DNA of 64,000 bases from a virus (IMGVR_UViG_3300042259_000159); one strand, 5' to 3'; shown: positions 1,530 to 36,799, counted from the stretch's first letter. Notes: generated by a model not told the origin, from the letters alone. Made by a program: numbers and translations.

Positions 1530-3950
1530 ATGAGATTCTTTACAATGGACTCTGAAGGAGATGGACTTGTAGATGAAATAACTAAGTTCCACTGTATTGT
1601 CTTCAAGGAGTATAAAAAGGAAAACATTTTTGTGTTTGTCGACAAAGAAAGAATGACAAAAGACATCTCAAAAGGTATAGAAAATGTATTCTCTAAATAC
1701 CGTTTTACTTGGGGGTATATAGAGGATTTTCCCAGATTCCTTAAGAGTGATATTGTTGACGGATTTCATTGTCATAACTTCTTCGGATTTGATCAGAAGG
1801 CCATTGAGAAACTGATACCGGAAATAAAGTTTAACCCCTTCATCAGACGTGAGGGGGTTCCGAGTACTGTTAATGTTGGTGGTTTTGAAAGAGACATACA
1901 CATTTATGACACCCTTCCAATGAGCAGAACGCTGCACCCAGACAGACCCCTACCTTCTGGGTGTCCTGCTAGGATTAAGAACCCTATAACAGGGAAGATG
2001 CAAAATGTTGGCCCCCACGGTTTTCAGGCTTGGGGATACCGTGTTGCAAGAGCAAAGCCGCAGATCGATGATTGGATAAATGACACACTTTTTAACTATA
2101 TACAACGGTGTGTTGCAGATACTGAAATCGGTGAAAAGGTTTGGGATGCCCTAAGGGTGGAGGCTCAAGACATAGCCACGGGTGGGGATTGGAAAAAACC
2201 GCTTAAGACATCAATGATAGATTTTTTTCTGTTTTGTGGTCAAGAGCAGGAAGGTGCCTTGTTGGATAAAGAGAAAGCGAAGACCCTTTGGGAAAGTATA
2301 AATAAAATGATGAAGGAGATAGCAGATGATGTAAATGCCTATCTTCTTGAGAAGAATGTTAGAAGGCCCCTTCCAAAAACAAAACAACCTAAATATCCTG
2401 CACAAACGTTTAAAAAAGACGGCACTCTAACAAATAATGCACTCAAGTGGTGTGATAGGGTTGGTATACCAGAAAAAGACGCTGAGAAGGCCATTCTGTG
2501 CATAAATAAGGCACTTAAAGAAGGGGATGAGAGTGTCCTTGAAAGGTATGTTTTGACGGAACAAGTCACTATTGCACACGATGCAGCCATTAAGGAGTAT
2601 CTTGTGGAAGAGGGTTGGGTTCCTACTCTTTGGAATATAAAAAACGCTTTTGTGAATCAGAAGAAAAAGGACTACACTCCTGAAGAGGTAGATGCAAACA
2701 TTGCAAAGTATATCAGTGAACTGAAGACAAGCCCTTATAAAAGATTTATTCTTAAAGAGTTGGATTGGGAAGGCATGGACACTGATAGAGCTTTAAGTAC
2801 CGAATCCTTCAGGAAGCATGTAAAAAGTAAAGGTAGGCAGCTTCCCACAACACCTAAAATAAAGGATGCCGCCACGGGTCGTATATGTCACAACCTTGAA
2901 GAGATGGATGGTGATTTTGCAAAGAAGGTTGTGAAATATGGTAGTTTGGAAAACAGACGTAATGTAATTCTTAGTGATAATGGAACTGGTTGGCTAACAC
3001 ACCCTAGACTTGAAAGGGACGGAAGAATACCTGCCAGCCATACAGGAACCACAAATACACACAGAGTTAAGCATTCAAACATCGTTAATATACCCAAGCC
3101 CGATCCTAAGGTTCTTTTGGGGTATGAGATGCGTGATCTTTTTGTTGCTCCTGAAGGGTGGATGTGTGTTGGGTGGGATAGTGCCGCTCTTGAAAACAGG
3201 GTTGCGGGGAGTGCTGCATACCCCTATGATGGGGGCAGATATGCAGATATTCTTCTCTTAGCGGACAGCCATACCCTTAATGCCCAAGCTTATTCTAAAG
3301 CAGCGGGGAAGGAAATCACAAGAAATAATGGCAAGTCTGTGACGTATGGAATTTTATACGGAGCACAGGCAAAAAAGGTTGCAAAAATGCTTGACATTTC
3401 CGTGGAAAAAGCACAAGATGTTATCAATGCTTTTTGGGATTCCAACGATGGTTTGAAGAAGTTTAAAGAGCATCTTGAGGCTTATTGGGAGAGCACAGGG
3501 AAAAAATACATCCTCGGACTAGATGGTAGGAAGGTTTATACAAGAAGTAAGCACAGCCTTGTAAATGCAGCCTTCCAATCCTGCGGTGCCATTCTTATGT
3601 CGCACACTATGGTGGAGATTGAGTATAGAAGGAGAGAGCAGGGTCTTATTGCTCCTCGTTGGGGATTTTATCATGATGAGGGGCAGTATTATATTCCTTT
3701 TACAAAAGATAAAAGTCTTTTTGATTTTGTGATTCAGGATGAAAAGGATACCCCAAAACCAGATGACAGGATGTGGACAAAAGCAAGAGAGATAAAAGAA
3801 GGCAAGGCGGCAGGCAAGTTTGTGAGGTATTACAGCCGTTTTGGAGAGTTGTGTGTTGAAACCCATAGGGATGTAGGTGTAATGCTTGGTATGAATATTC
3901 CTCTTGACGGGGAATACATGGTTGGTAAGAGTTGGGCACAAACACATTAA
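1530..3950 (+). CDS. DNA polymerase, family A (T7 gp5-like)
   Basis: ATG at 1530 follows GAAGGAG at 1516-1522; N-terminus MRFFTMDSEGDGLVDEITKFHC and motifs KGLDGRKVYTRSKHS, YHDEGQY resemble T7 DNA polymerase as recalled. Confidence 0.85.
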   Translation: MRFFTMDSEGDGLVDEITKFHCIVFKEYKKENIFVFVDKERMTKDISKGIENVFSKYRFTWGYIEDFPRFLKSDIVDGFHCHNFFGFDQKAIEKLIPEIKFNPFIRREGVPSTVNVGGFERDIHIYDTLPMSRTLHPDRPLPSGCPARIKNPITGKMQNVGPHGFQAWGYRVARAKPQIDDWINDTLFNYIQRCVADTEIGEKVWDALRVEAQDIATGGDWKKPLKTSMIDFFLFCGQEQEGALLDKEKAKTLWESINKMMKEIADDVNAYLLEKNVRRPLPKTKQPKYPAQTFKKDGTLTNNALKWCDRVGIPEKDAEKAILCINKALKEGDESVLERYVLTEQVTIAHDAAIKEYLVEEGWVPTLWNIKNAFVNQKKKDYTPEEVDANIAKYISELKTSPYKRFILKELDWEGMDTDRALSTESFRKHVKSKGRQLPTTPKIKDAATGRICHNLEEMDGDFAKKVVKYGSLENRRNVILSDNGTGWLTHPRLERDGRIPASHTGTTNTHRVKHSNIVNIPKPDPKVLLGYEMRDLFVAPEGWMCVGWDSAALENRVAGSAAYPYDGGRYADILLLADSHTLNAQAYSKAAGKEITRNNGKSVTYGILYGAQAKKVAKMLDISVEKAQDVINAFWDSNDGLKKFKEHLEAYWESTGKKYILGLDGRKVYTRSKHSLVNAAFQSCGAILMSHTMVEIEYRRREQGLIAPRWGFYHDEGQYYIPFTKDKSLFDFVIQDEKDTPKPDDRMWTKAREIKEGKAAGKFVRYYSRFGELCVETHRDVGVMLGMNIPLDGEYMVGKSWAQTH

Positions 3951-3976
3951 AAACTTTTAGTAAAGAAGGAGAATGT

Positions 3977-4225
3977 ATGAATCTTTATGTAGTAGAAACA
4001 CCTGTTATGCCTAAGAATGATTGGGATACCTATCACAGAGCCTTTACGAGGGTAGAGGCTGTTGATCCCCTCCATGCGGTTAAGATAATTCTGTCTCAGC
4101 TTGACGATAAGGAAAAATACCGTGATTACATTGTGAGCTGTGATGGTATGTGTGATGACAAGGGTGTTTCTTGTCAAACCCTTATTAGGGTTGATACAGC
4201 AGGAATTTCAACATATTATATTTAG
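3977..4225 (+). CDS. hypothetical protein
   Basis: ATG preceded by GAAGGAG; ORF track frame. Confidence 0.5.
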   Translation: MNLYVVETPVMPKNDWDTYHRAFTRVEAVDPLHAVKIILSQLDDKEKYRDYIVSCDGMCDDKGVSCQTLIRVDTAGISTYYI

Positions 4226-4233
4226 GAAACAAT

Positions 4234-4584
4234 ATGAACATCTTTAACAAAACAGATAAAGAAACGGCAGACGACCCAGAAAACGAAGGCATGTTCTTTA
4301 CCCTAGCCAAAAACTTTGATGATGACTTTGATTCACAAGAACAAAAAGAAAAACATAGTGGGTGGGTAAAAATTGCGGTAGGGGAATTGGGGTGTAATGC
4401 CGTTCTTGATTATGAAAAAGGCATTTCAGACTTTGCACTTGAAATGCTCAAAGAAGATATAAAGGATCAGAATGTTGATCTTGGAGAGGTTGGTGTGTAC
4501 ACGTTTAACATAAATGTGGACTGTGAATCAGATTACTATGGTGACTATGATTGTTACCTTGAATATGAGAAAATTGAAGACTAA
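4234..4584 (+). CDS. hypothetical acidic protein
   Basis: ORF with upstream AGGAAA RBS-like sequence. Confidence 0.5.
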   Translation: MNIFNKTDKETADDPENEGMFFTLAKNFDDDFDSQEQKEKHSGWVKIAVGELGCNAVLDYEKGISDFALEMLKEDIKDQNVDLGEVGVYTFNINVDCESDYYGDYDCYLEYEKIED

Positions 4585-4624
4585 ACACTACTGACCGAAT
4601 TAAACAAAAAGGAGAGTTGATCAT

Positions 4625-5017
4625 ATGAATTATAAAGAACACCTTATTGCAAACATGAAAGTTGCTGCCAACTCATTTAAAATGATGGTATTTCATGCCT
4701 TGCACGGTATCATTCCTTGCAAATACACAAGTCATGATTATTGGGCTGTCAACGACAATTCAAAGGATATCAAAACATCGGAGTTTATTCCCTGCAAAGA
4801 GCGATTGCCGGAAAACAAAGGATATTATTGGGCTACTGTTAAAGAATCGGGTAGCCCGTATAGTGAAACCGGCACTAGTTACTATATAGAAACAGTTTGG
4901 TACAGCCCTGAAAATGGAAATGGCTGGTACATTGCGAATTGCCGCAAAGATAATCCTGATTGGACATTTGAAGTTACTGCGTGGATGGAACGCGCCAAGC
5001 CTTATAAAGGAGATTGA
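4625..5017 (+). CDS. hypothetical protein
   Basis: ORF preceded by AAAGGAGAG. Confidence 0.5.
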   Translation: MNYKEHLIANMKVAANSFKMMVFHALHGIIPCKYTSHDYWAVNDNSKDIKTSEFIPCKERLPENKGYYWATVKESGSPYSETGTSYYIETVWYSPENGNGWYIANCRKDNPDWTFEVTAWMERAKPYKGD

Positions 5018-5119
5018 TAGTGCCCAAGAACTACATACCTGTTTGGACGGGTTGGGGAGGGCAAGCCCTACTTGTAGATAAAGCGTGAAACGCTTTGTTT
5101 CTAAAACCTATATTTTCTA

Positions 5120-5148
5120 TTGACAAAAGTGTTCGGTCTTGATAGGTT
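5120..5148 (+). promoter_or_regulatory. sigma70-like promoter (TTGACA-N17-TAGGTT) sharing an extended motif with the promoter at 11068
   Basis: ctattgacaaaag...gttgtatttaac; the same extended motif recurs at 11063-11104. Confidence 0.5.
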
Positions 5149-5188
5149 GTATTTAACGAAACAACATAAACAAACAAAAGGTTCAGAC

Positions 5189-5599
5189 ATGCGTAAAACT
5201 CTTTTTATTATTCGGGGTGCTTCCGGTTCCGGTAAAAGCACTCTTGCTGATGAGATTGATAACATTTTGCAGGTTTGGGAAGCAGATATGTATTTTACAG
5301 ATGCCATTACTCAGGAATATAACTTCATCCCTAAACTCCTCCCGCTGGCTCATAAGTGGTGTCAAAATCAGATCCGTAAGTGTATGGAGCGCGGTGACAA
5401 GAGAATTGCTGTGGCAAATACCTTTACAAAAAACTGGGAAATGAAACCATATCTTGACATGTGTGAAGATTTTGGTTACACTCCTTTCGTAATTCGCTGT
5501 GAGAATGCTTTTGACAATATCCACGATGTACCTGAAGATGTTGTCAAGAAACAACGCGAACGTTTTGAAGATTATGGAGTAACTAAAGATGTCTCGTAG
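5189..5599 (+). CDS. P-loop nucleotide/polynucleotide kinase-like protein
   Basis: Walker A GASGSGKST; architecture resembles the kinase domain of T4 Pnk (recall only). Confidence 0.55.
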   Translation: MRKTLFIIRGASGSGKSTLADEIDNILQVWEADMYFTDAITQEYNFIPKLLPLAHKWCQNQIRKCMERGDKRIAVANTFTKNWEMKPYLDMCEDFGYTPFVIRCENAFDNIHDVPEDVVKKQRERFEDYGVTKDVS

Positions 5600-5819
5600 G
5601 GTATACACAAAAACTATCAAGACAGAAAAGGAAGTCGCATTTACCGAATTAACATGTGACGAGTGTGGCAGAAAAGAAGAAACAAGCGCAGACGAATTGT
5701 TCGGATGGGATGCTATGACGTATGGTGGTAAGGTATACGATATATGCCCCTCGTGTGCTGAGGCTTTGGCTACTATTGTACAATCTATGAAAATAGAAAA
5801 GCAAGAAAATCTATACTAA
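5589..5819 (+). CDS. zinc-ribbon protein
   Basis: CDECG...CPSC cysteine pairs. Confidence 0.45.
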   Translation: MSRRVYTKTIKTEKEVAFTELTCDECGRKEETSADELFGWDAMTYGGKVYDICPSCAEALATIVQSMKIEKQENLY

Positions 5820-5842
5820 CCTGTTATAAGAAAAGGCTAACT

Positions 5843-6376
5843 TTGGACATCTTCTTTATAACTTTTATTCTGTGGTTTGGAGGGGAGACTATTCCCGATG
5901 ATCTCCTGCACGATACAATCAGTGAGGTTGTCGATATTGTATGTTCTCAGCACCACATACCGGACAAGGAAAGTTTTAAAAGGCTTTTATATGAGACTGC
6001 TCAATATGAAAGTGAGGGTGGAATATATATAGAACAGCTTTCCGGAGGAGGAGCAAAAGGTATCTATCAGATAGAGCCTTTCACAGCGGAGTGCATAAAA
6101 AGCAATTGGATGAAATATAACGCTTCCAGCGGTGTTGAGACACTTTATAAAAATGCCTATGAAAGCGGCATGGGCTTGGAGTGGAATCTAGAGGTTAATC
6201 TGGGGTTTCAAACACTTATAGCCTCTTTGATTTACATTTCAAGAATGAATAAAAAAGACCATGCCCTAATAAAAACCTTGACAGGAAGGGCAAAAGTGTA
6301 TAAGAAGTATTTTAATACACCACTTGGAAAAGGAACAGTTCAAGGGTATATAACCAAAAACAAAAAGGAGAAATGA
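5843..6376 (+). CDS. hypothetical protein (TTG start)
   Basis: ORF track; no in-frame ATG near the 5' end. Confidence 0.4.
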   Translation: MDIFFITFILWFGGETIPDDLLHDTISEVVDIVCSQHHIPDKESFKRLLYETAQYESEGGIYIEQLSGGGAKGIYQIEPFTAECIKSNWMKYNASSGVETLYKNAYESGMGLEWNLEVNLGFQTLIASLIYISRMNKKDHALIKTLTGRAKVYKKYFNTPLGKGTVQGYITKNKKEK

Positions 6377-6633
6377 TGAGTATTTACACACCGAAAGAGG
6401 TAGCAAATGTAGCAATGGATATCGTTCTGAAGGAGGGCATTGCACGTCTTGAGTATGATAAAGATTTTATCCGAAAGATTGAAAACACCCTTCAAGAAGC
6501 AGGGTACTTTAAGGTAAACATTACCGATGCACAGAAGCGTCACATTGCAAAAGCAATGCTTAAGGATGTGACACGATGGCATGAAAGTCGCCGTAAATAT
6601 ATGGCAGAAAGCCGTGGACATAAGAACTGGTAA
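6373..6633 (+). CDS. hypothetical protein
   Basis: ATGA overlap with upstream stop; AAGGAG upstream. Confidence 0.5.
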   Translation: MMSIYTPKEVANVAMDIVLKEGIARLEYDKDFIRKIENTLQEAGYFKVNITDAQKRHIAKAMLKDVTRWHESRRKYMAESRGHKNW

Positions 6634-6915
6634 GTCTTAATTCCTCGACTGGCCAGTCCCATTCAGACGTTTAAGGAGTACAAATGCTTGCTTTTTGTTC
6701 GCAAGACGAGTTTGATTTTTCAGAGGAAAAACAGGAAAGACGTGTAAACCGTATGAAGAAGGGAAGTAAACGGCTTACTAAAGAAGATCGTAAGAAGATA
6801 GTTAAACAAAGGCGTATACTTAAGAACAAAGAGGGCTTCAGGGATGAAGAGCATGATGGTGAGTATATCTAGCGCACCACACTCAAAATGCCTGAGAAAA
6901 AATAAGGAGAACACT

Positions 6916-7404
6916 GTGGAAAAGATGAGTGAAAATATGAGCCTCTATGATTTTATTCTTGAGGATCTTGCAAAACTTAAAGGTACTACGAAATACGGGC
7001 ACTACCGTCACAAAATGTTAAAGCTGCTTCCACGTATAGGCTTTTTGGGTGATGCCGGTTACTACCCCTTTGGAGGATGTACTGTAGCACTTGAGTTCAC
7101 TAATGTAGGTGTTGCTATAAAATACGGAGTATGCAACGAGGTCGATCGCTTTGTTAAAAGCCTCGGAAGGGCTTGTGCAAGATCAAAAAAGCCCTCACAA
7201 TTTTATCCGTATGAGAAACTTCTAGAAGACATCCTTCAGGATGAAGAATGCCTTACGGATGACAGCCTTGCATGTAAGCTTGATATCGCACTGACAACCC
7301 TAGATACCTTTAGACGCATGATCATACAAAGAGCCTACCAGAAAGCCGAGGAAGGTCTTAAGAAGGCAGGATTTAAAGAGAAAACATTCTACATTCTGAA
7401 ATAG
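6916..7404 (+). CDS. hypothetical protein
   Basis: GTG 6 nt after AAGGAG (6904-6909); in-frame ATG at 6925 is an alternative start. Confidence 0.45.
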   Translation: MEKMSENMSLYDFILEDLAKLKGTTKYGHYRHKMLKLLPRIGFLGDAGYYPFGGCTVALEFTNVGVAIKYGVCNEVDRFVKSLGRACARSKKPSQFYPYEKLLEDILQDEECLTDDSLACKLDIALTTLDTFRRMIIQRAYQKAEEGLKKAGFKEKTFYILK

Positions 7405-7478
7405 GCATTTATCACCTTGACAAGCATCTTATCTTAGGATAGGGTGCTTTTATTATTTTCAATTACAAGGAGGATGCT

Positions 7479-8855
7479 ATGGAGATGTTTTTTAGCAACA
7501 AAGAGGTTATCAGGGCTTGGGAAAATGTTGTGAAAAAACTTAACGCCAGCGGTTTTAAAGGTGCCATTGTTGGCGGTGCAGTTAGGGATGTTTTTATGGG
7601 AAAGACTCCCACAGATATAGACATTGCTACAAATGCAACACCAGAGGAGGTTTGTAGCATCTTTAAAGGTGCTAAACTTGTTGGTGAAAGCTTTGGTGTT
7701 TGCCGTTGGAATGGCTATGAAATTGCTACTTATCGAAACGATGTCCACAACGGTATTGGTGATACTTGTTGCACCGTGAGGTATACAGACGATCTCATTG
7801 AAGACCTTAGGCGTAGAGACTTCACAATGAATGCTTGTGCATATGAGAGGCATCCTGACGGGACAACGCATTTTGTTATGGCACAGGCAGGTTGTCTGGA
7901 TGACATCGAGAATAAGCGTCTTGATTTTGTAGGCAATGCTGAAGATAGAATCAGGGAAGATCCCAACCGCAGCTTCAGAGCATACCGCATGATTTGCAAA
8001 ACAGGCTTTCTGCCGTCATATGCTACAGCAAAGATAATATACAACAGAGGTATTGTTGAAAAATATCTTCCGTACATTGCACCTGAGAGGATAGGTAAAG
8101 AGCTTATAAAATCTATGGAGGAGCCTTTCTCTTGGAATTTTTTTAGGTGTCTTTACAGGTCTGGTATTATGTACACTCTCATCCCTGAGATGGCACAGGC
8201 TTGGAATATTTGGGGAGGAAAATACCATGCAGAGTACGTTGGTGAACACCTTATGGCTGTTGGTATGGGTATCTCTGCAAAATTCCCCTTGCTGAGGCTT
8301 GCAGGGTATCTGCATGATGTTGGTAAGGGGGTAACACACGAGGATGGCAGCTTCATCCGGCATGAAAAAGAGGGCGTGCATATTGCGCGGAGGTTTCTTA
8401 AAAGCCTTAAGTTCTCTACAAAAGATACAGAGAAGGTTTGCAATATAATTCGTTGCCATATGCGTAGATTTGGTGAGAATGAAACGCCTGCTACAAACAG
8501 GCGAACCCTTGCATATCTTGCAAAACACAATGTCTGCACATACGATTTCATCCGTTTGCGGATTGCGGATCACAACGGCAACTTTGCATGCAAGAAGATG
8601 AAATTCAGAGATATTAAGTCCCTTGTCAGATGTTGGGACACCTATCAGTTTGAAAAACAAGCTGCCCATAGTAGGAAAATGCTTGCCATTAATGGCAGGG
8701 ATATTATGAAAGAGTTTAATATCCCTCCGTCAAGACTTGTTGGGGAGATGATTGAATTTGCCCATAATATTGTTCTTGACAATGTTGATAAAAACGAATA
8801 TAGTATCCTTATCAATGAAATTAAAAAGCGGTTCGGAGGTAGCAATGGCGAATGA
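7479..8855 (+). CDS. tRNA nucleotidyltransferase (CCA-adding enzyme) with HD phosphohydrolase domain
   Basis: Pol-beta nucleotidyltransferase motif GGAVRD...DIDIAT, RRDFTMNA; HD motif HLMAVG...YLHDVGK. Confidence 0.75.
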   Translation: MEMFFSNKEVIRAWENVVKKLNASGFKGAIVGGAVRDVFMGKTPTDIDIATNATPEEVCSIFKGAKLVGESFGVCRWNGYEIATYRNDVHNGIGDTCCTVRYTDDLIEDLRRRDFTMNACAYERHPDGTTHFVMAQAGCLDDIENKRLDFVGNAEDRIREDPNRSFRAYRMICKTGFLPSYATAKIIYNRGIVEKYLPYIAPERIGKELIKSMEEPFSWNFFRCLYRSGIMYTLIPEMAQAWNIWGGKYHAEYVGEHLMAVGMGISAKFPLLRLAGYLHDVGKGVTHEDGSFIRHEKEGVHIARRFLKSLKFSTKDTEKVCNIIRCHMRRFGENETPATNRRTLAYLAKHNVCTYDFIRLRIADHNGNFACKKMKFRDIKSLVRCWDTYQFEKQAAHSRKMLAINGRDIMKEFNIPPSRLVGEMIEFAHNIVLDNVDKNEYSILINEIKKRFGGSNGE

Positions 8856-9033
8856 ACTTAATCTAAGGCTTAAGCTTAACGATGTGGAGAGGGAGGCAGC
8901 CACCTACAGGGCGGTATGCAAGATGTTGTTTAATAGAATGTCTTCAGCAGGAGACCTTGCATTCATCCACAAAAAGGATCTTCAAAAAGCACTTGACAAA
9001 TATAAGGAGGTATCACAAGATGCAAATATATAA
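8845..9033 (+). CDS. hypothetical protein
   Basis: ATG after GGAGGTAG. Confidence 0.45.
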   Translation: MANELNLRLKLNDVEREAATYRAVCKMLFNRMSSAGDLAFIHKKDLQKALDKYKEVSQDANI

Positions 9034-9439
9034 ACCGAGCCACTTCAGGATTGAAGAACTTGTTGACAAAAAAACTTTCAACGACAGAGGCGAGAAGGCT
9101 TGGCAACTTTTGGATGACAGGGCTTTGTTTGTTCTTCAGCTTCTCAGAAAGCGTTATGGACCCATTACAGTTAACAACTGGCTGTGGGGAGGGGACAGAC
9201 AGTGGAGCGGCCTTAGAACAAAAGAGTGCAGTATTGGTGCAACATATTCTCAGCACAGGTTCGGAAGAGCCTTTGACTGTCTTATTAAAAACGCCACTGC
9301 CGAAGAAGTTAGAAAAGATATGCTTGACTTCTGGCCAAAACAGATGTATAACTTCCCTATCACGATGGAAGACGATGTAAGCTGGTTCCATTTTGATACG
9401 CGGCAACAGGAAAATCCAGTAACCATTTTTAAACCGTAA
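9020..9439 (+). CDS. endolysin, peptidase M15 (L-Ala-D-Glu / D-Ala-D-Ala peptidase-like)
   Basis: SQHRFGRAFD (SxHxxGxAxD) and downstream WFHFD; ATG 9020 after AGGAGG. Confidence 0.7.
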   Translation: MQIYKPSHFRIEELVDKKTFNDRGEKAWQLLDDRALFVLQLLRKRYGPITVNNWLWGGDRQWSGLRTKECSIGATYSQHRFGRAFDCLIKNATAEEVRKDMLDFWPKQMYNFPITMEDDVSWFHFDTRQQENPVTIFKP

Positions 9440-9440
9440 A

Positions 9441-9468
9441 GGCGAATATCTGCCTAGCGTAACTCATA
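9441..9468 (+). repeat. 28-bp exact inverted copy of the tnpB 3' end / right-end sequence (second copy at 35548-35575)
   Basis: ggcgaatatctgcctagcgtaactcata here equals the reverse complement of 35548-35575. Confidence 0.8.
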
Positions 9469-9882
9469 GGATACATGGACTTCGCAAGTACAAGAATCAA
9501 ATTAAAAAGGAACTTTAACTATGGATATAGCGGTATCACACAAGATACGACTGCCGTGGTTCCCCTCCAAATCCTTCTGTGCTAAATCTTAACGCCTGTG
9601 GACAGAATGACCTCTGTATCTACCAACCAATGGAAGATATAAGTCAGCTGGTTGAAGCAGGAATTAAGTCCGGATTAATAGAAATTAATAGGAATTAAGG
9701 AGCAGATGAATATGTTGATTACGAACAATAAAGAACACCTTCGCTCATACCATGATATCATGCGTCTTTGGAAGATTGGTATCTTCACAGACAAGGCAAA
9801 GGATAAGTATTTGAATAAGCTTTATATTCGTGCTATGCACGACGGTAGGGTTCTTACAGAAAAAGAACATTGAGGGATAGCA

Positions 9883-23785: not shown

Positions 23786-24037
23786 CTAAATATGTTCTTC
23801 TATAAGATTCTTTGTACTTATAACACAGAACCTGATGGAGCTATACAGCCCAAGGAGCAAACCTGTGGTAATGAAGCCGCTAACAACTATGCTTCCTGAC
23901 AAAGCCATAACCAGAAGATAGGCAAAGAAGAGACAACCACACAACGATCCTGCAAAATCAAGCAGTGTTTTAAAGCCTTTCATGTTGTTCTTTCTCCATA
24001 ATATATTGACAAATAACTTTTGCTGCTTTTTCGTCAC
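23786..24037 (-). CDS. membrane protein
   Basis: Hydrophobic segments. Confidence 0.35.
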   Translation of the reverse strand: MTKKQQKLFVNILWRKNNMKGFKTLLDFAGSLCGCLFFAYLLVMALSGSIVVSGFITTGLLLGLYSSIRFCVISTKNLIEEHI

Positions 24038-24524
24038 TTACTAGGTTTATAAAAGGTATATTATACTCTATAAGAAAGTTTTTTATCTTAATATCTACCT
24101 CTTCAGCCTCTTTTACATCCTTTTGGGTGCGTCCCTTTGAATCATAGGGGAACTTTTTATTTCTTTCCAAGAGGATGTTAACGTTGTCATATGCATTGAA
24201 AGTTTCAACAACAAGGTGTTGAAATGCGTTTTTAGGAACAAAACCATCAACCTTGCAATAGATGGCTGATAGGAGTATAGGGCTGTCTGTAACCACGAAG
24301 TCTGCCTGCCCATAGATACTTTTCTGTTGCAGTAGCTGTTTTGCGAAAATGTAGAGTTGCTCTTCTTGGAGAATCTTCTCTCTGCCCTGATATACCAAGC
24401 TTTTAGCATACTCTGTTACCAGTTCAGTGCTCAGATGTCTCCTTTTCATTACTGAGAAAAGATCCGCAGCGACAGTGCTTTTACCGGCACAAGGCCCACC
24501 AAAGATGTTGATTATTTTAGTCAT
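23970..24524 (-). CDS. P-loop NTPase (nucleoside/nucleotide kinase-like)
   Basis: Walker A GGPCAGKST. Confidence 0.55.
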   Translation of the reverse strand: MTKIINIFGGPCAGKSTVAADLFSVMKRRHLSTELVTEYAKSLVYQGREKILQEEQLYIFAKQLLQQKSIYGQADFVVTDSPILLSAIYCKVDGFVPKNAFQHLVVETFNAYDNVNILLERNKKFPYDSKGRTQKDVKEAEEVDIKIKNFLIEYNIPFINLVSDEKAAKVICQYIMEKEQHERL

Positions 24525-25702: not shown

Positions 25703-26830
25703 TTAATCCTCCCTGATATATTGTCCTACAGTATTCCCTTGCGGAATACCATCTTTCGAAAACTCCTGAAACTTAACATTAAGCCACTTGCCAATATAGC
25801 TGTCTTTGTACTTTATAATTTGCTCTCTATAGGCATCCTCCCCCATAGGTCTAACTTCAAAAATCTTTTTATTCTGGGTTTCACAGACAAACATACCTTG
25901 GCGGTATGCAACACACCCGTCTGTATTATAGATTGGTTTTGTTTCCACCACATCTACAATTTTAAACTCATTATCCATAAAGCTTTTATATTTCCACAGG
26001 TGAGGAGACCTAGTACATTCATAGGGGGCATCTATTCTTATTATTATGCCCTCAAATCCTTGCTGAACACGTTCGTTACATATCTTCTCCAAGGAATCAC
26101 AGGAAGGCAGTCTCATATCCTTCTGCTGGAGGAGGGTGTTTGGGGTAAGAAAGGCAGTTCTTTCCCTATAAGTAAGATGCTCCATCCCCTTAATATAAAC
26201 ATCAAATACTACAAAGTCAATATCATATATTTCAGCATTACCTGTCTTTACAAATGAGTTGATATCTTGTAAGGGCATCCCGTGCTTATAAAACTCCCCA
26301 TCAAGTATTACATTCTCCTCCTTGGCCTTCATCCCTCTTGCAATCCTTGATATAAGAGCCTCTGACTGGTAATACGCACGGCATTGTAAAGGCACCTTGG
26401 AATATTCTACATTTTTACGTGAGAAAAACAGCCTTCTCCTGTCAACTTCTTGGAAGGTGGCTCGTAACCCGTTTAACTTATTTTGAAGCACCACAGACCC
26501 GCCCACGGCCATTTTTTCCATACGTCTATAGTTTTTCCTTCCGTCCTGCGCCTTCATAGGGTAGAAGGTGGAACCCCACTGTTCAATATCTTCGACATAC
26601 CCTTTACGCTCTATCTGCTTCCTGTGCAGGGCGGCAGCTTCAAGACGTGCCTGTTCCTCTGCTGTTGTCTCATTTGCTTTCCCTATATTCTTACCGTTGC
26701 AAACCGTTTTTCTTTTTGTTTGTTTACCGCCCTGTGTTCCGTGGATAACAGTGAAGGAATCTCCCTCAACAAAGATCCTCCACTCCCTGATTTTGCCTTT
26801 TCTATCTTTAGCATATAGTGTGGAAAACAC
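25703..26830 (-). CDS. ATP-dependent DNA ligase (T7-like)
   Basis: LDGEFY, EGIIIR, WKYKSF resemble T7 ligase motifs as recalled. Confidence 0.7.
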   Translation of the reverse strand: MFSTLYAKDRKGKIREWRIFVEGDSFTVIHGTQGGKQTKRKTVCNGKNIGKANETTAEEQARLEAAALHRKQIERKGYVEDIEQWGSTFYPMKAQDGRKNYRRMEKMAVGGSVVLQNKLNGLRATFQEVDRRRLFFSRKNVEYSKVPLQCRAYYQSEALISRIARGMKAKEENVILDGEFYKHGMPLQDINSFVKTGNAEIYDIDFVVFDVYIKGMEHLTYRERTAFLTPNTLLQQKDMRLPSCDSLEKICNERVQQGFEGIIIRIDAPYECTRSPHLWKYKSFMDNEFKIVDVVETKPIYNTDGCVAYRQGMFVCETQNKKIFEVRPMGEDAYREQIIKYKDSYIGKWLNVKFQEFSKDGIPQGNTVGQYIRED

Positions 26831-27679: not shown

Positions 27680-30600
27680 CTAAATGCTTTTATCTACAAA
27701 CTTTCTCTGTGGAAAATCAAATTCCCGCCTTGTTTTATTCCAAGCTTTTACGGGTGTAAAAAACCCAACAACCCTTGTCAGCTGTGTACTTATATCTTCC
27801 GAACATATGGGGCATGTACTGAAGGAACCCATAGAGACATGGGAGTTGATACACTCAGAGTATACGGTATTAATGGCAAAATGTTCACATCCACAACCCA
27901 AAGCAAAACAGATAATTTTCTTGGCCTGCTCTCTTGTCAGCCTCTGCCCGACAGTGGCATGAACAATCCCCCCGCCTGTTAGGTTTTTAGTATATTCTCC
28001 GTCAATTCTGAGCCTGTCCCACAGAGATGCCTCTTCCCACAAAGGAACAAACTGGTTTGCATAGAGAGGGTATTCTATAAAAGTATCGCCGTGAATGATC
28101 TTATCTGCGCTGCAAACTTTTACAGCCATACTCTCTGCTGGGATTTGCTCAATGTTGAAGACATATCCTGCGTTCTTCTTGGTATACAATCTAGCTTTTC
28201 TGTTAAGAAATGTCAAGATCTTTTTCTTCAAATCCCCCTCAACACCGAACCTTTGTTTAAGAACCTTTTCACACTCGTAAAGACCAAGAATACCAAACGT
28301 TGAAAAGAGCCTGTTGAGGTCTATCCACCCACGCGTTATAAAAGGCTGAAGACCTATTTGTTCAAGGACATGAATCAAGACCTTATGAGCAATCAGAATA
28401 TCTTTAGCAGCCTCTACACGGTACGTGTATATTTTCCAAAAATCATCAATACTCTCGGCCTCAATTGCCATCTTGTTGAAATTAAGAGTAACAACTCTAT
28501 GGCTCCCGATGCTGGAAAGAACACCGGCACCGAAAGAATTGGAGGTGGATGCCACATCTAACATCTCTTCATCATTGATCAATCGGCAACAGCTAGCGAT
28601 CTTTGTGCTCTCAGATGTGAAAATATTGTAGCGCGAAATGTCTCTATTAAGAAATATTTCCAAACTCTCTTCGTCTGCAAGGATGTAATCATCGCCGTCC
28701 TTAGTTTTTGAAATGTTCATCGTGCAAACAGGGAACCTGTAAGGCATCCCGTTATTTGAGGGATCTCCTTTATCAAAGATGTCTAGGAATATTTCCTGCA
28801 ATTCAAAAACATAGTCAACACACTCTTCTATATCTACAACACCACCATCTGAAAACATCCACAAAAGATGTTCCTTTATGATGTACCTGAGTTTGTGTTT
28901 ATCAAACACCGATACATTGGTAAAGGGACTCTCAACTCCGTCACGACTCAAATGGTTTACGCTGTGAATAAGCTGTTGAAACTCGTTTTCTATCTCTTTC
29001 CTCACAGCCTTATCGTTTTTAAGCACATCAAGGGGAACCTTATTCTTTATCATGAGAAGGTGAGCAACATCTATAAATACAGTACCTATGGCTAGAGCAC
29101 CAGCAACATGCGATGACATTTGGTGGATTGTCTCACACAGGGCGGCAATATAACTATTAACTCTTTTTGCCGGTTTAGAGGGCAATACTCCAAAAGTTCT
29201 TCCTTCTGTAATGAGATTTGTTGCGTTTAAAGAATAACAATTATGTTGCACCATTCCGTTTGCATAAAAACGGCCCGTTGCTGTTGTCAAATCATATACG
29301 TCTTGAAGCTCCTCTCTAAGCTTTCTTGTACTAGGAATGTCTTCAAGATTAAACCTGATGATTTTTACAACCCTGTTGCTTTCGCCCTTGGTGTTTGCTT
29401 TTTCATTATACTTATCATAGTCTTCTTTATGCATCTTCATCTTATCAGAAAGATCAACCATCTTATTCGTACTTGACGGGACAAAGGAAAGGGCATAAAT
29501 CGAATTAGAAATATCACTCCCTTTTATCCTTTTTCTAAGGCATCGAATACCTTCAATGCCTCTAAGGACGTCATAAAGTGTGTTTATTACTGCCATAGAC
29601 TGCAAACAAATCTCCACCCTGCCATTCTTTTTGTAGGTATATCCGTCCGCGTCTACAAGCCCCGCAACAAGTGCCTCTACAGAATCATTTGTCCAAGAGA
29701 GGATGTTCTTAGGAAGAACCTTTGTGAAGCTATTTTCTTTGTTCCCGAAACCAAAAAAGGCACTTACAAGAAAATTCATATCATAAGAAGACCAATTAAT
29801 CTGTCTCTCGACTTTATCACTGGGCTTAAAAAGATTCGCATCAGGAAACAAGTCTTTTATGATACTATAAATTCTTGAGTTATCAATATCGTTTTGATAA
29901 ACACTGCAAAGCGTTCCCCCTCTTGTAAATCTGAAAGAGCCTTTTATGTCCTTACCGTTCATTACGCCATCATCAACACAATACCCTTCAAAGTTCCCAT
30001 CACCAAGCATAAAGCCAAGAAGGTAGGCCAGCTTTTCTGGAACAATTATTGTTTTTTCCACGGAGGGCAAACAAGTCTCTGTCAAAACAGCATCCCCAAC
30101 AGAAAGTTCTGAGGCTATTTTTTCAGTTCCATCTTCCATATAGATTGGGTGGTTGTCTGTTACCAAAGCAAAGTGCCCTGCCTCTGTCTGATACAAAGAG
30201 AATCCTGTATCCGTTTTATGCTTGATAATACGTTGTACAGCAACCCATCCATTGTTTGTATCCCAAACCTCTATATTAACTTTTTCACTCACATTGCAGG
30301 CCAACTTACCGGAACGACCTTTTGCGGTGTTCTTGTTAGTGATGTTCGCACTCACATTATTACGCAGCATTGCTGTTGTAATCTCTAGATCTCTTGTAAG
30401 GCCTTTTGTGTTAATTTCCTCATGCGTACCCCTATTTTCGGAGTGTATTGCAAACATATTGAAAAGCTTTTTAAGAGGAATACAAATAATCTCTCCGTTA
30501 ATTCTGACAAAAACAGGCGTGTTTCCATAATACGAATATGGAAGGTTTAGCTTCGTGCTGTCGGAGATGGGAAGACTGAAATCCAACATTTCTCCTATAA

Positions 30601-30982
30601 GCCTTTTAGCCCTCTTCTTGCCGTAGAGTTCCTTCATAACACGGTAGAGGAAATCGTACCCTGCAATTTTTTTCTGGGGGGCACTTGCCTCACTCTGTAT
30701 TCCGGCAATTGTCTTCTCATTCTTATTAGCATTGTCATCAATAGAGACATCATTAATGTTTGCATTTAATTGTTTTTGAAACATCTTGAGAAAGTCTGTA
30801 TTGTCCTGCGAAAGACCATGCAGACGCATAAGTTTTTCAGCTTTTGTATCAATCTCTTCTTGAGAAAGGGTTGTTTTACGAGAAAGATTCCTTTTCAAAG
30901 CCTTAAGCATCTGTTTCCGTGTGTATTCAATCTCAGCATCATTTGTAAAAGATGAAGAAAAACCTTTAGCTATGCTATTCAA
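27680..30982 (-). CDS. nrdD: anaerobic ribonucleoside-triphosphate reductase NrdD (class III), interrupted by an intein
   Basis: C-terminal glycyl-radical-like TRVVGFF and CPICS zinc site; long ORF; likely TTG start at 30982 (AAGGAG 9 nt upstream) overlapping the nrdG stop; track ORF extends to 31051. Confidence 0.8.
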   Translation of the reverse strand: MNSIAKGFSSSFTNDAEIEYTRKQMLKALKRNLSRKTTLSQEEIDTKAEKLMRLHGLSQDNTDFLKMFQKQLNANINDVSIDDNANKNEKTIAGIQSEASAPQKKIAGYDFLYRVMKELYGKKRAKRLIGEMLDFSLPISDSTKLNLPYSYYGNTPVFVRINGEIICIPLKKLFNMFAIHSENRGTHEEINTKGLTRDLEITTAMLRNNVSANITNKNTAKGRSGKLACNVSEKVNIEVWDTNNGWVAVQRIIKHKTDTGFSLYQTEAGHFALVTDNHPIYMEDGTEKIASELSVGDAVLTETCLPSVEKTIIVPEKLAYLLGFMLGDGNFEGYCVDDGVMNGKDIKGSFRFTRGGTLCSVYQNDIDNSRIYSIIKDLFPDANLFKPSDKVERQINWSSYDMNFLVSAFFGFGNKENSFTKVLPKNILSWTNDSVEALVAGLVDADGYTYKKNGRVEICLQSMAVINTLYDVLRGIEGIRCLRKRIKGSDISNSIYALSFVPSSTNKMVDLSDKMKMHKEDYDKYNEKANTKGESNRVVKIIRFNLEDIPSTRKLREELQDVYDLTTATGRFYANGMVQHNCYSLNATNLITEGRTFGVLPSKPAKRVNSYIAALCETIHQMSSHVAGALAIGTVFIDVAHLLMIKNKVPLDVLKNDKAVRKEIENEFQQLIHSVNHLSRDGVESPFTNVSVFDKHKLRYIIKEHLLWMFSDGGVVDIEECVDYVFELQEIFLDIFDKGDPSNNGMPYRFPVCTMNISKTKDGDDYILADEESLEIFLNRDISRYNIFTSESTKIASCCRLINDEEMLDVASTSNSFGAGVLSSIGSHRVVTLNFNKMAIEAESIDDFWKIYTYRVEAAKDILIAHKVLIHVLEQIGLQPFITRGWIDLNRLFSTFGILGLYECEKVLKQRFGVEGDLKKKILTFLNRKARLYTKKNAGYVFNIEQIPAESMAVKVCSADKIIHGDTFIEYPLYANQFVPLWEEASLWDRLRIDGEYTKNLTGGGIVHATVGQRLTREQAKKIICFALGCGCEHFAINTVYSECINSHVSMGSFSTCPICSEDISTQLTRVVGFFTPVKAWNKTRREFDFPQRKFVDKSI
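29240..30298 (-). other. intein with LAGLIDADG homing endonuclease domain inside NrdD
   Basis: Hint block B VTDNHPIY; LAGLIDADG motifs LAYLLGFMLGDGNF and LVAGLVDADGY; C-terminal VQHN followed by Cys; N-terminal boundary uncertain (may extend to ~30535). Confidence 0.7.
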
Positions 30983-31490
30983 AGCAGTAAACTCCTTCTT
31001 TTGTAAGTTTAACATAATTATTATTATAAAGTTCTTGGTTAGACGAACCAAGTACGAGTTTTGTCCTTTGCCCTTTTGTTGTATCTGACTGGTGCAGTTC
31101 TTTTATATACTCTCCTGTTTTTATAAATTTGAAACCGTTAAGATTAAGGTATTTAACAGTGTCAATATCGTATCCAGTATAAATACATATGTTAAAACAC
31201 CCACCGTATTGTTCTAAGAACTGTGCTGTAAACCCTCTGTTGCAGGAGGCTAGCGGATCTCCACCAAGAAGTACAATATTATTTGTGCGGTATTTTAAGG
31301 TCTCCTGTTTACAATGGTTGTAGAAGTCTTCAATGGAAAATTCCACACCACCCTGATATTCAGGGTTTTGCAGGGAGGGGTTATGACACCCCTTACAGGA
31401 AAAATCACACCCACACATAAAAAGACTTACTGCCCACCCATCCTTTGAGGGGTAGTCTGTAAATGTCATCTCAGAACCTGCAAATCTCAT
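30975..31490 (-). CDS. nrdG: anaerobic RNR activating enzyme NrdG (radical SAM)
   Basis: CGCDFSCKGC radical SAM-type cysteine motif; adjacent to nrdD. Confidence 0.75.
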   Translation of the reverse strand: MRFAGSEMTFTDYPSKDGWAVSLFMCGCDFSCKGCHNPSLQNPEYQGGVEFSIEDFYNHCKQETLKYRTNNIVLLGGDPLASCNRGFTAQFLEQYGGCFNICIYTGYDIDTVKYLNLNGFKFIKTGEYIKELHQSDTTKGQRTKLVLGSSNQELYNNNYVKLTKEGVYCFE

Positions 31491-32435: not shown

Positions 32436-33410
32436 TTAGCGGCAAAAATAAATGTCTGGTGAGAAGGTTAGAAGATCTTTTGTATGCACTGAGTATGAGA
32501 TATCGTTCAAATCCTGTGCTTCGTGTAAAATATCAAACACAAGGAACCCGAAATCTACTGTTCCAGAACATTTCCTCTCTCCGAAAATTGTCTTTGGACC
32601 TTGAAGAGATGGACAAGACATCGCCATATATTTTGTTGTACTGTTTGCAATGTGGTAGTGAACATGCCCACGGAGAATTACATCGCTTTTAGGCTGCATC
32701 TTTTTCTCTTCCCATAGGCGATTCCAGACATATTCTTTCGAAAGCTGTGTTGCCCTCCCGTGAGGGATTCCACTACTTCCAATGGCATGTCTGAGGTCAA
32801 AAAGAATCCCATTAATATCTACCCACAACCTACCATCAAAAATAGCACCTATCTCTTTAGCTAGAACCTCTTCAAAATCCTCACCACCGGCATATGTATG
32901 GTAACCTGTCCCACCAACTAGAAAAATATTCTTACACGGGATTGAATCGAAGACTTGAACAGCTATATCTACTTGCTCGTTGAGGGATGAGGTTATCAGT
33001 CCATTTCCACCATCCTTAGATGCCTTGCCATCAATTGCATCGCCTATGTGAAAAAGTGCATCGATATGGCCTAAGGATGAAACCCCTGTAGAGAAAAAGT
33101 CCCACATCTCTTCTTGCATAGAGGCAATCTTCTTTCTTTCCTCTTTGCTTCCTCCTTGAACGTTAAACATCCAGTCTGGAGGTGTCAAACCAACCTTACT
33201 TCCGCAGTGGGTATCCGAGATAACCAAAACCCTTGAGAAATCCCTTTTACACCTTTCCTCCTCTTTTTCCCACTTTGTGAGACCCTTATACTTATCCTTA
33301 AGAAAGTCGTGAACAGAAGATTTTGGAACCCCTGTTGCGGCAGAAATCTGCCTTATAGACTTCCCAGCCTTTTGCATTATAAGAGCAACCTCTTTCTGAT
33401 ATTCCTCCAT
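32436..33410 (-). CDS. metallophosphoesterase with N-terminal HTH
   Basis: Calcineurin-like motifs SDTHCG, GDAIDG, GGTGYH, GHVHYH. Confidence 0.65.
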   Translation of the reverse strand: MEEYQKEVALIMQKAGKSIRQISAATGVPKSSVHDFLKDKYKGLTKWEKEEERCKRDFSRVLVISDTHCGSKVGLTPPDWMFNVQGGSKEERKKIASMQEEMWDFFSTGVSSLGHIDALFHIGDAIDGKASKDGGNGLITSSLNEQVDIAVQVFDSIPCKNIFLVGGTGYHTYAGGEDFEEVLAKEIGAIFDGRLWVDINGILFDLRHAIGSSGIPHGRATQLSKEYVWNRLWEEKKMQPKSDVILRGHVHYHIANSTTKYMAMSCPSLQGPKTIFGERKCSGTVDFGFLVFDILHEAQDLNDISYSVHTKDLLTFSPDIYFCR

Positions 33411-33489: not shown

Positions 33490-33950
33490 TTACTTATCTC
33501 TCTGGTAGTAGTGCTTTGATATTGCACTTCTTTCCATTTTTTGAATTTTTTTATTCTGAACGTCGGACCCATAACGTCCAGAACACGTTCTGGAACAAAA
33601 GGGCCCAGCTTTATTTTTAATGTTTCTCTGTGTCACCGTTGGCGTAAAAAGAGAATCGCAATATGGACACTTTACTTCTTCCACTCTCACCCTTACCACA
33701 TCAAGCGAAGCATGGGAGGATCTACACAAAACTTGTAAATTTTCAATTTTGTTGTTCAGTGGATTTCTATCAATGTGGTCAACTGTCTCAGATGGATCTA
33801 AAACTCTGCCCAGATGCACTTCCATTATAATTCTGGAAGCCTGTTTAGCAGTTCTTTTAATTCCATCATATAAAACAATGACCAGTCTACCGTCTTTCCT
33901 TAAATATGGCCCATAAATTTTTTTACACTCTGGGTACAATTTTTGAATGT
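33490..33950 (-). CDS. HNH homing endonuclease
   Basis: HIDRNPLNNKIENLQVLCRSSH; track ORF extends to 34023 but that overlaps tRNA-Leu, so the start is uncertain. Confidence 0.6.
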
Positions 33951-33953
33951 GTT

Positions 33954-34037
33954 TGGTAGGAGAAGAGAGATTCGAACTCTCAAGGAATAATCCGTCGAGG
34001 CTTAAACTCGATGTGTTTACCATTTCACCATTCTCCC
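33954..34037 (-). tRNA. tRNA-Leu (anticodon UAA), type II, CCA encoded
   Basis: Manual fold: acceptor GGGAGAA/TTCTCCT, anticodon loop TTTAAGC, long variable arm, T-loop TTCGAAT. Confidence 0.65.
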
Positions 34038-34045
34038 GTATTTTT

Positions 34046-34067
34046 TATCTACCATTCCGCCATTCCC
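34046..34067 (-). other. orphan tRNA 5' fragment (Leu-like acceptor + D-arm)
   Basis: GCGGGAATGGCGGAATGGTAGA with no matching 3' half. Confidence 0.4.
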
Positions 34068-34076
34068 GCATTTATT

Positions 34077-34153
34077 TGGTACCCACTGTGAGATTCGAAC
34101 CCACACTAATCAGTTTCTAAGACTGATGCCTCTGCCAAGTTGGGCTATACCAG
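34077..34153 (-). tRNA. tRNA-like gene (class I, anticodon UAG) with mismatched acceptor stem; probably chimeric or disrupted
   Basis: D-arm, anticodon arm TCAGT-CTTAGAA-ACTGA and T-arm fold, but 5' ACTGGTA does not pair with 3' AGTGGGT. Confidence 0.4.
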
Positions 34154-34184
34154 TATTATGCTTATTATTTTATTTTGAAAGGCC

Positions 34185-34235
34185 ATATGTATACACATAT
34201 ATATATATACATATATATATGTATAGAGCAACCAA
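34185..34235. repeat. TA-rich microsatellite
   Basis: atatgtatacacatatatatatatacatatatatatgtatag. Confidence 0.8.
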
Positions 34236-34412
34236 AATGGTTAAATAAAAAGGTGTTTTGTGGAGACACCAAACTCCTCCAGTTTTAGTGATCTGGAAAC
34301 AATAAGCGGCGCAGGTGCTCTTTAAAACACGTGCTACCAAGCGTATAAATTGTCTAGGGGATTTCACCAAACACATTATGTTATTGGAGGGATCTTTCCC
34401 TAGACTCAGTAA

Positions 34413-34485
34413 AGCTCCTGACAGGACTTGAACCCGCAACCGGCTGATTACAAATCAGCTGCTCTGCCAGTTGAGCTACAGGAGC
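34413..34485 (-). tRNA. tRNA-Thr (anticodon UGU), CCA not encoded
   Basis: Manual fold: acceptor GCTCCTG/CAGGAGC, D-arm GCTC..GAGC, anticodon loop TTTGTAA. Confidence 0.7.
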
Positions 34486-34489
34486 AGAA

Positions 34490-34561
34490 CAGAGGGAGAA
34501 GGATTCGAACCTTCGAATGACGGGACCAAAACCCGTTGCCTTACCGCTTGGCTACCCCTCT
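34490..34561 (-). tRNA. tRNA-Gln (anticodon UUG), CCA not encoded
   Basis: Manual fold: acceptor AGAGGGG/TCCCTCT, anticodon stem ACGGG/CCCGT, loop TTTTGGT. Confidence 0.65.
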
Positions 34562-34569
34562 AAATTTTT

Positions 34570-34646
34570 TGGCTCCGGCGGCAGGATTTGAACCTACATT
34601 CGCAATGGTTAACAGCCATTTGCCTTACCAATTCGGCGACACCGGA
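34570..34646 (-). tRNA. tRNA-Asn (anticodon GUU), CCA encoded
   Basis: Manual fold: acceptor TCCGGTG/CGCCGGA, anticodon stem AATGG/CCATT, loop CTGTTAA. Confidence 0.65.
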
Positions 34647-34691
34647 ATGAACTTTTTATTTGTTATCAGCATTGTTTTGCTTTATTTTAAA

Positions 34692-35393: not shown

Positions 35394-35399
35394 TTAAGT

Positions 35400-36795: not shown

Positions 36796-36799
36796 TGGC

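Follow-up and report, generated by a model that had tools for sequence, protein, structure and literature searches.

A Pnk-type kinase and a CCA-adding enzyme suggest an incomplete RNA-repair gene set in a tRNA-bearing phage

Can a phage that carries its own tRNA genes also repair broken tRNAs? The question is raised by four genes in a 64,000-nucleotide (nt) stretch of the virus IMGVR_UViG_3300042259_000159 (the whole stretch is hereafter referred to as the window). A first-pass annotation had combined a P-loop kinase resembling polynucleotide kinase (Pnk), a CCA-adding enzyme fused to an HD phosphohydrolase, an ATP-dependent ligase and a metallophosphoesterase into a single tRNA maintenance toolkit, which might counter host anticodon nucleases. 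Here we report a computational analysis of these genes and of the genome in which they reside. All four open reading frames (ORFs) are present at the positions first proposed (5189–5599, 7479–8855, 25703–26830 and 32436–33410). With moderate confidence, we read the CCA/HD enzyme and the Pnk-type kinase as RNA-end enzymes whose sealing partner is missing, and the ligase and the metallophosphoesterase as components of DNA metabolism. The phage holds an ordinary, incomplete RNA-repair gene set, comprising two genuine RNA-end enzymes and no complete pathway.

Phage tRNAs and RNA-repair enzymes are recognized as counter-defences against tRNA-cleaving immune systems (PMC7824862, PMC11555353 and PMC10802454). 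CCA-adding enzymes occur in many known tRNA-carrying phages, as they do here, and the repair of damaged 3′ ends has been proposed as a general function of such phage enzymes (PMC7824862).

CCA-adding enzyme and its tRNA substrates

The gene at 7479–8855 (plus strand) encodes a 458-residue class II CCA-adding tRNA nucleotidyltransferase with a C-terminal HD phosphohydrolase domain. The Pfam matches comprise the PolyA_pol head (E = 6e-22), PolyA_pol_RNAbd, HD (E = 1e-12) and tRNA_NucTran2_2 (E = 6e-11), and the TIGR00277 HDIG model scores 33.5, above its cut-off of 27.6; the protein is a predicted member of this group at the superfamily level. It is 26% identical to Escherichia coli Cca, a protein with the annotation of a fused CCA nucleotidyltransferase/phosphohydrolase, and shares with it invariantly the GGAVRD motif (G32–D37), D46/D48, R112–D114 and E160-D161-P162-x-R164. 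The metal ligands of the HD domain (H250, H257, H279-D280 and H295) are likewise kept. The domain order, a head/neck nucleotidyltransferase followed by HD, is that of E. coli Cca and of the phage tRNA nucleotidyltransferases (phrog_2244), and the DxD, RRD, EDPxR and H...HD...H motifs are common to the phage and E. coli enzymes, whereas the phage enzyme has an additional C-terminal tRNA_NucTran2_2-like region. Because the CCA/HD motifs are identical to those of E. coli Cca, the fusion noted at first, the domains and motifs of which are intact, is the standard E. coli-type architecture rather than a new one.

The candidate substrates of this enzyme lie in a tRNA block on the minus strand (33954–37033), in which ARAGORN and Rfam identify eight tRNAs (Leu-UAA twice, Leu-UAG twice, Thr, Gln, Asn and Pro) where at least seven had been counted previously. 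Six have an encoded CCA. Only tRNA-Thr(UGU) (34413–34485) and tRNA-Gln(UUG) (34489–34562), as their printed 3′ ends confirm, lack it, in agreement with the earlier count, and these two are obligate substrates of a CCA-adding enzyme. The phage enzyme would most likely add CCA to the tRNA-Thr and tRNA-Gln transcripts, and this maturation role is the simplest one because two of the phage tRNAs are CCA-less. It would probably also restore trimmed 3′ ends, on the tRNAs of the host as well as on those of the phage. The HD domain could remove 2′,3′-cyclic phosphates or 3′-phosphates, by analogy with the annotated phosphohydrolase of E. coli Cca.

Among 435 phage records, 24 match the CCA enzyme over at least 80% of its length. 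The closest phage by this protein, Nitratidesulfovibrio phage SRB7757, shares only the CCA enzyme, ThyX and one small ORF with our phage and so offers no useful synteny. Vibrio phage helene has a CCA enzyme, but no kinase is detectable in the first 9 kb of its genome; therefore, the linkage between the CCA enzyme and the kinase is not a conserved cassette. A megablast search of window positions 5000–9500 against phages returned no match. A single hairpin with a T-run precedes the CCA gene (7422–7449), and a promoter and terminator scan of 3900–9600 gave nothing above chance.

Stand-alone Pnk-type kinase

The ORF at 5189–5599 (plus strand) encodes a stand-alone, 136-residue Pnk-type P-loop kinase, a predicted 5′-OH polynucleotide kinase. 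Its ATG at 5189 agrees with the N termini of its homologs; gene callers also used an alternative upstream start at 5129. The protein matches Pfam AAA_33 (E = 1.6e-9) and phrog_2071, labelled ‘ATPase’ (E = 4e-32), and gives a weak match to the polynucleotide kinases of phrog_505. We found 313 homologs, and a profile search indicated about 14,000 representative clusters in the phrog_2071 family, mostly stand-alone proteins of 120–150 residues. R9, G10, G13, G15, K16, D33, N77, T78, E84 and Y88 are invariant in the family alignment; the GxxxxGK(S/T) P-loop is present as RGASGSGKST, with G10, G13, G15 and K16 conserved throughout 41 homologs.

A phmmer search of the kinase against the Protein Data Bank (PDB) was uninformative, so that a structural comparison was needed. 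In the fold search, the highest scores were obtained for CthPnkp (14.4), T4 Pnk (13.3), PSTK (12.8), Pnkp1 (11.8) and PNKP (11.5), whereas nucleoside monophosphate kinases scored about 7.6, indicating that the overall fold is nearer to polynucleotide kinases than to (deoxy)nucleoside monophosphate ((d)NMP) kinases. The family profile aligns with residues 1–146 of T4 Pnkp (hhalign, probability 97%, E = 1e-10; the T4 sequence used is 100% identical to annotated pseT), and the invariant D33 aligns on the T4 general base D35. A distinct dNMP-kinase-like gene (AAA_28, phrog_2107) is found in the nucleotide module at 23970–24524. The 136-residue protein thus belongs with the Pnk-type kinases rather than with the dNMP kinases, and its initial description as Pnk-like is borne out by the structural comparison.

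The genomic contexts of the family point to RNA. An RNA ligase lies adjacent to the kinase homolog, or at most 2 kb away, in the contigs L001, L002, L003, L018, L015, L016 and L019; by contrast, L014 carries a homolog with no RNA ligase visible on the contig. Homologs directly adjoin an Rnl1-type RNA ligase in Aeromonas phage 2L372X, Pseudomonas phage Amme-3, E. coli phage isim and Vibrio phage F88, and a small phosphoesterase often accompanies these pairs. On two metagenomic contigs the homolog lies 1–2 kb from PF09511 genes, and the family includes fusions of the kinase with OB and RNA_ligase domains (P0369) and with CNPase (P0235). The best reading of the large, mostly unannotated ‘AAA ATPase’ family phrog_2071 is thus that of a minimal polynucleotide kinase with ties to RNA ligases.

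Our analysis shows a polynucleotide-kinase fold, an Asp residue aligned on the T4 catalytic base and a family-wide linkage to RNA ligases. The kinase would most likely transfer the γ-phosphate of a nucleoside triphosphate to 5′-OH polynucleotide ends, with Lys16 and Ser17 of the P-loop and Asp33 as the proposed general base, and this step would constitute healing ahead of ligation by an ATP-dependent RNA ligase. Compared with the tRNA repair pair of T4 Pnkp and Rnl1, which counters the PrrC anticodon nuclease, and with Clostridium thermocellum Pnkp, the phage kinase is a stand-alone protein of 136 residues that has neither a fused HAD nor a fused metallophosphoesterase phosphatase. It also differs in lacking conserved equivalents of the T4 residues Arg38, Asp85 and Arg126, and in residing in a genome without an RNA ligase.

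Two ORFs in the interval between the kinase and CCA genes were considered as further repair enzymes. The 177-residue product matches phrog_3108, a family of unknown function, and has a lytic transglycosylase-like motif by eye; it was rejected. The 186-residue product, considered in the same role, gave no hits.

DNA ligase and metallophosphoesterase

The gene at 25703–26830 (minus strand) encodes a 375-residue ATP-dependent ligase, which we reassign to DNA and nucleotide metabolism. DNA_ligase_A_M matches with 54.7 bits (E = 1.5e-14), DNA_ligase_OB_2 reaches 26.5 bits, just below its cut-off of 28, and the Rnl1 family PF09511 gives no match in Pfam. The protein matches phrog_114 ATP-dependent DNA ligase (E = 1e-46) and an NCBIfam DNA ligase model; its PDB sequence matches are DNA ligases only, from African swine fever virus (ASFV, 6imj), T4 (6dt1) and the Lig E type (4d05). 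It shares with the ASFV and phage DNA ligases the KxNG signature (motif I, KLNGLR) and the OB domain, and 340 residues align with the ASFV enzyme; it is divergent, with at most 32% identity to any phage record. Every full-length phage homolog listed carries a DNA ligase annotation. Among the matching proteins are the DNA ligases of isim and Amme-3, both of which carry a separate Rnl1. The neighbouring genes encode ThyX, NrdG, an intein-containing NrdD, a dUTPase-like protein, DsbA, an AAA_28 protein, 3′-phosphoadenosine-5′-phosphosulfate (PAPS) reductase and DNA methylases. Judged by its sequence, the 375-residue protein is a DNA ligase, replicative or repair.

The metallophosphoesterase gene (32436–33410, minus strand) lies 27 kb from the kinase gene and encodes a 324-residue protein with a helix-turn-helix (HTH) region and a DP1/Mre11-like phosphoesterase. 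Pfam Metallophos remains below threshold (E = 0.0057), whereas the family alignment keeps D66/H68, D124/D127, H171, H208 and H249/H251, and the DxH, GDxxD, GNH-like, H and GHxH motifs and a β-sandwich fold are present in the alignment and the predicted model. The top structural neighbours are DNA exonucleases, namely the proofreading exonuclease DP1 and Mre11/SbcD. In comparison with the archaeal PolD small subunit DP1 and with Mre11/SbcD, the phage protein has an N-terminal HTH extension and lacks the DP1 OB domain and a PolD partner. The predicted structure suggests that it is probably a DNA 3′–5′ exonuclease, not an RNA end-healing phosphoesterase. Its only match in the phage collection is in a Methanomicrobiales virus.

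These assignments bear on the proposal that the kinase, the CCA/HD enzyme, the metallophosphoesterase and the ligase form a self-sufficient, T4-like healing and sealing system against host anticodon nucleases. Such a system would fit a Pnk-like kinase, HD and metallophosphoesterase folds that could in principle heal 3′ ends, a ligase with a secondary Pfam RNA_ligase match above the cut-off and a metallophosphoesterase gene about 0.5 kb from the tRNA block. However, the ligase finds its best matches among DNA ligases at every level, has a DNA-ligase OB domain and sits beside ThyX, NrdDG and a dUTPase-like protein, and a dedicated Rnl1 accompanies this kind of ligase in related phages. The metallophosphoesterase is nearest to DP1 and Mre11/SbcD, and the small phosphoesterases that accompany the kinase and Rnl1 in the isim and Amme-3 cassettes find nothing by tblastn in the window or in L008. 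The four genes are, moreover, scattered over 28 kb and two strands. We consider such a system very improbable. Profile assignment, which the first-pass annotation had proposed as a check, thus places the ligase with the DNA ligases of a nucleotide/DNA module and leaves the kinase outside the dNMP kinases. The ligase ORF and the metallophosphoesterase fold and residues are real, but neither protein belongs to a tRNA toolkit; two of the four components fit an RNA or tRNA role. CCA maturation and repair are plausible, but a single four-enzyme toolkit does not hold.

Outside the window, an ORF at L008:4836–5417 (minus strand) adjoins a 5′–3′ exonuclease gene and encodes a 193-residue HAD-like protein with an N-terminal FDLDNTL (DxDxT) motif. 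It matches weakly to phrog_420 (E = 1e-5) and to phrog_415 ‘polynucleotide kinase’ (E = 8.7e-5); we found no PDB match, no phage match and no homologs outside its own cluster (98% identical), and BLASTP aligns it with the phosphatase domain of T4 Pnkp at the DxDxT motif only. There are two candidates for 3′-end healing, namely this HAD-like ORF and the HD domain carried by the CCA enzyme; neither is assigned.

Missing RNA ligase and a sister phage

The window sequence recurs on a 70,213-bp contig of the Joint Genome Institute (JGI). On the contig L008, the last 60 bases of the window sit 6,190 bp upstream of its first bases, and a 91,584-bp contig corresponds to exactly 70,190 + 21,394 bp on the same circle. 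The genome is therefore circular or circularly permuted, with a length of about 70.19 kb (70,190 bp). Public contigs that exceed this length (91.6 kb, and reportedly as much as 117 kb) appear to be more-than-unit-length representations, the arithmetic having been checked for the 91.6-kb one. The window represents 91% of the genome, and the remaining 6.19 kb was inspected as L008:2333–8522; because the circle is closed, a partner ligase could be searched for genome-wide.

Pfam look-ups and scans of the 70.19-kb genome, covering the called genes and the larger ORFs in two stretches without gene calls, detected no Rnl1, RtcB or other RNA ligase. The DNA ligase itself accounts, through its weaker cross-hit, for the sole PF09414 match in the genome, and tblastn searches of the genome with three Rnl1 proteins and with the ligase of the sister phage described below were negative. 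A 290-residue ORF in the 6.19 kb beyond the window, considered as an Rnl1-sized ligase, has an acidic DDIPF tail like that of single-stranded DNA-binding proteins and matches phrog_4477; it was rejected. With no RNA ligase detected in the approximately 70-kb genome, the suggested pathway of healing and sealing against anticodon nucleases is incomplete here; T4-style healing and sealing cannot be completed by the phage genome alone, and the phage would be unable to seal a cleaved anticodon loop unaided.

The kinase has its nearest relative (protein identity 87%, no frameshift) in the sister phage, represented by the European Nucleotide Archive (ENA) contig L019. Its DNA is 97% identical to that of our phage across DnaB–PolA and 92% across the kinase. 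Directly after its kinase gene, with an 8-bp overlap, L019 encodes a 423-residue protein that matches the PHA02142 OB-fold (E = 5e-10) and RNA_ligase (PF09414, E = 2.6e-7) and gives a weak tRNA_bind signal. This is the domain pair of the OB-fold plus PF09414 RNA ligases; it follows an orthologous kinase in L019 and is absent from the window and the genome. A sequence search against solved structures found no match; by its N-terminal OB fold and PF09414 domain, the protein may resemble Rnl5/DraRnl-like RNA ligases.

An approximately 40-bp repeat at the 3′ end of the kinase gene (5537–5577, plus strand) matches L019 at 8349–8389 and at 9723–9763 (blastn and pairwise alignment), and these two copies of the kinase 3′ end bracket an RNA ligase cassette of about 1.33 kb. 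Since the repeat matches both ends of the cassette, the window carries what the alignment identifies as the ligase-less allele of a repeat-flanked indel, which could have arisen by insertion or by deletion. L004, L005 and L006, which carry the exact CCA protein of our phage, also lack the ligase. The small zinc-ribbon ORF after the L019 kinase is chimeric: its first 27 residues match the window ORF 5589–5819, and the rest is a TnpB C terminus, followed by 217 bp that are 97.7% identical to the 3′ end of the TnpB element of the window (L019 9723–10065 compared with window 5589–5671 and 35418–35634). A remnant of the same insertion sequence therefore lies at the L019 kinase locus.

Because the sealing partner is missing, the kinase would require a ligase supplied in trans, would prepare DNA ends that the phage DNA ligase then seals or would be the leftover of a two-gene module. 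The last of these, in which the kinase was orphaned by loss of the ligase or never acquired one, has little function and leaves only the CCA enzyme to matter for the CCA-less tRNAs, is unlikely in our view. It draws on the cassette that is present in L019 and absent here at a repeat-flanked site, and on the ligase-less L004, L005 and L006. On the other side, the kinase ORF is intact and keeps all family-invariant residues, its 87% protein identity to the L019 copy is unbroken by any frameshift, and stand-alone kinases without a visible ligase occur elsewhere (L014).

A service to DNA, in which the kinase phosphorylates 5′-OH DNA ends, for example at nicks made by host nucleases or by the many homing endonucleases of the phage, for sealing by the phage DNA ligase, and the CCA enzyme works independently, seems to us similarly doubtful. 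The kinase gene lies within the early DnaB–PolA block, and the genome has a DNA ligase and no RNA ligase. T4 Pnk and mammalian PNKP, both structural neighbours of the kinase, act on DNA, and DNA ligase genes lie near the kinase in L001–L003 too. Yet the family is linked repeatedly, and most tightly, with RNA ligases, as the RNA_ligase and CNPase fusions illustrate, and L019 pairs the same kinase with an RNA ligase bearing a tRNA_bind-like OB fold.

We attach still less probability to a ligase-independent or trans-complemented system for RNA-end maintenance that would consist of the kinase, the CCA enzyme with its HD domain and, perhaps, the HAD-like phosphatase. In one version, the system would ready broken tRNA ends for sealing by a host ligase, or by the phage DNA ligase working on RNA; a second version has it 5′-phosphorylate host RNA fragments, so that RtcB-type repair is blocked and the fragments are directed into decay pathways. 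On this view, near-identical strains would have or lack the neighbouring RNA ligase as an adaptation to hosts that differ in their tRNA-targeting defences.

Several observations weigh against our preferred assignment of two RNA-end enzymes and two enzymes of DNA metabolism. The best NCBIfam model for the CCA enzyme, NF009814, scores 164 bits against an equivalog cut-off of 290; the CCA models (164 and 150 bits) rank above pcnB (128 bits), and all remain below their equivalog cut-offs. The best PDB sequence match is E. coli poly(A) polymerase, by a small margin over a Bacillus CCA enzyme, and the specificity for CCA, as opposed to A-adding or poly(A) activity, is a predicted one. Arg38, Asp85 and the lid residue Arg126 of T4 Pnk make acceptor and transition-state contacts; in the kinase, their places are taken by F36, N77 and a short H-D-V-P segment in the hhalign comparison, an alignment and not a structure, and the only invariant Arg of the family is R9, before the P-loop. 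The kinase may thus bind its substrate differently or could act on another substrate altogether, and the role of the family as polynucleotide kinases is a predicted one. The 375-residue ligase passes the Pfam RNA_ligase (PF09414) cut-off, with a match weaker than that to DNA_ligase_A_M of the same clan (35.9 versus 54.7 bits). A novel ligase could lie among the many unannotated small ORFs, and the HAD-like ORF could be a Pnkp-type 3′-phosphatase or a nucleotidase.

On the reading of two RNA-end enzymes without a sealing partner, the phage can plausibly mature or rebuild tRNA 3′ ends and phosphorylate 5′-OH ends, both being predicted activities. The near-identical phage pair that differs in the sealing ligase provides a natural system for asking when RNA sealing pays off. 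The case also calls for caution in annotation: when a tRNA-bearing phage encodes an ATP-dependent ligase and a metallophosphoesterase, these should not be taken for RNA repair without family assignment.

Inserted elements and split genes

The tRNA block is interrupted by a TnpB-only IS605-family element (35418–36800, minus strand), the ORF of which (35559–36677) contains HTH_OrfB, OrfB_IS605 and TNB domains. By eye, each end of the element shows a similar subterminal hairpin, and Rfam gives a sub-threshold RAGATH-18 match at 35451–35518, just 3′ of tnpB. The possibility that the tRNA-Leu region contains a group I intron or an IStron was considered and rejected, as Rfam finds no intron there and just the sub-threshold RAGATH-18 match. 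The element adjoins a third, truncated tRNA-Leu(UAA)-like copy (36793–36884), which is 84% identical to 36889–36980 and ends after the anticodon region.

Further irregularities are found towards the other end of the block. A short fragment resembling a tRNA-Leu 5′ end (34049–34071, minus strand) lies ahead of the intact tRNA-Leu(UAA). The 69-nt ‘tRNA-Leu(UAG)’ at 34077–34145 (minus strand) is without a long variable arm and has the lowest Rfam score (37.8 bits). An HNH endonuclease ORF (33490–34023, minus strand) overlaps, in its longest form, the tRNA-Leu at 33954–34037, and the spacer between the tRNA groups contains an AT/TA-rich imperfect palindrome (34184–34224; ATATGTATACACATATATATATATA...).

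The genome is unusually rich in selfish elements, with five introns, an intein, several HNH genes, a LAGLIDADG gene and TnpB. The five group I introns reach the Rfam gathering score on the plus strand (42190–42402, 42559–42828, 43153–43386, 44876–45191 and 46043–46349) and are flanked by ORF fragments matching Terminase_6N (41911–42225), Terminase_6C (43430–44167) and Portal_Mu (44110–44910); three introns therefore appear to interrupt the large terminase gene, and two the portal gene. The LAGLIDADG endonuclease ORF is located at 44999–45655. On the minus strand, the gene for the anaerobic ribonucleotide reductase NrdD (27680–31051) has a weak Intein_splicing match and lies alongside those for NrdG (Fer4_12) and ThyX. 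Two adjacent minus-strand ORFs (39545–40024 and 40087–40548) match the C- and N-terminal parts, respectively, of a D12-class (Dam-like) DNA methyltransferase, the gene for which looks to be split, whether through a frameshift, an element lying between the two parts or an error of assembly.

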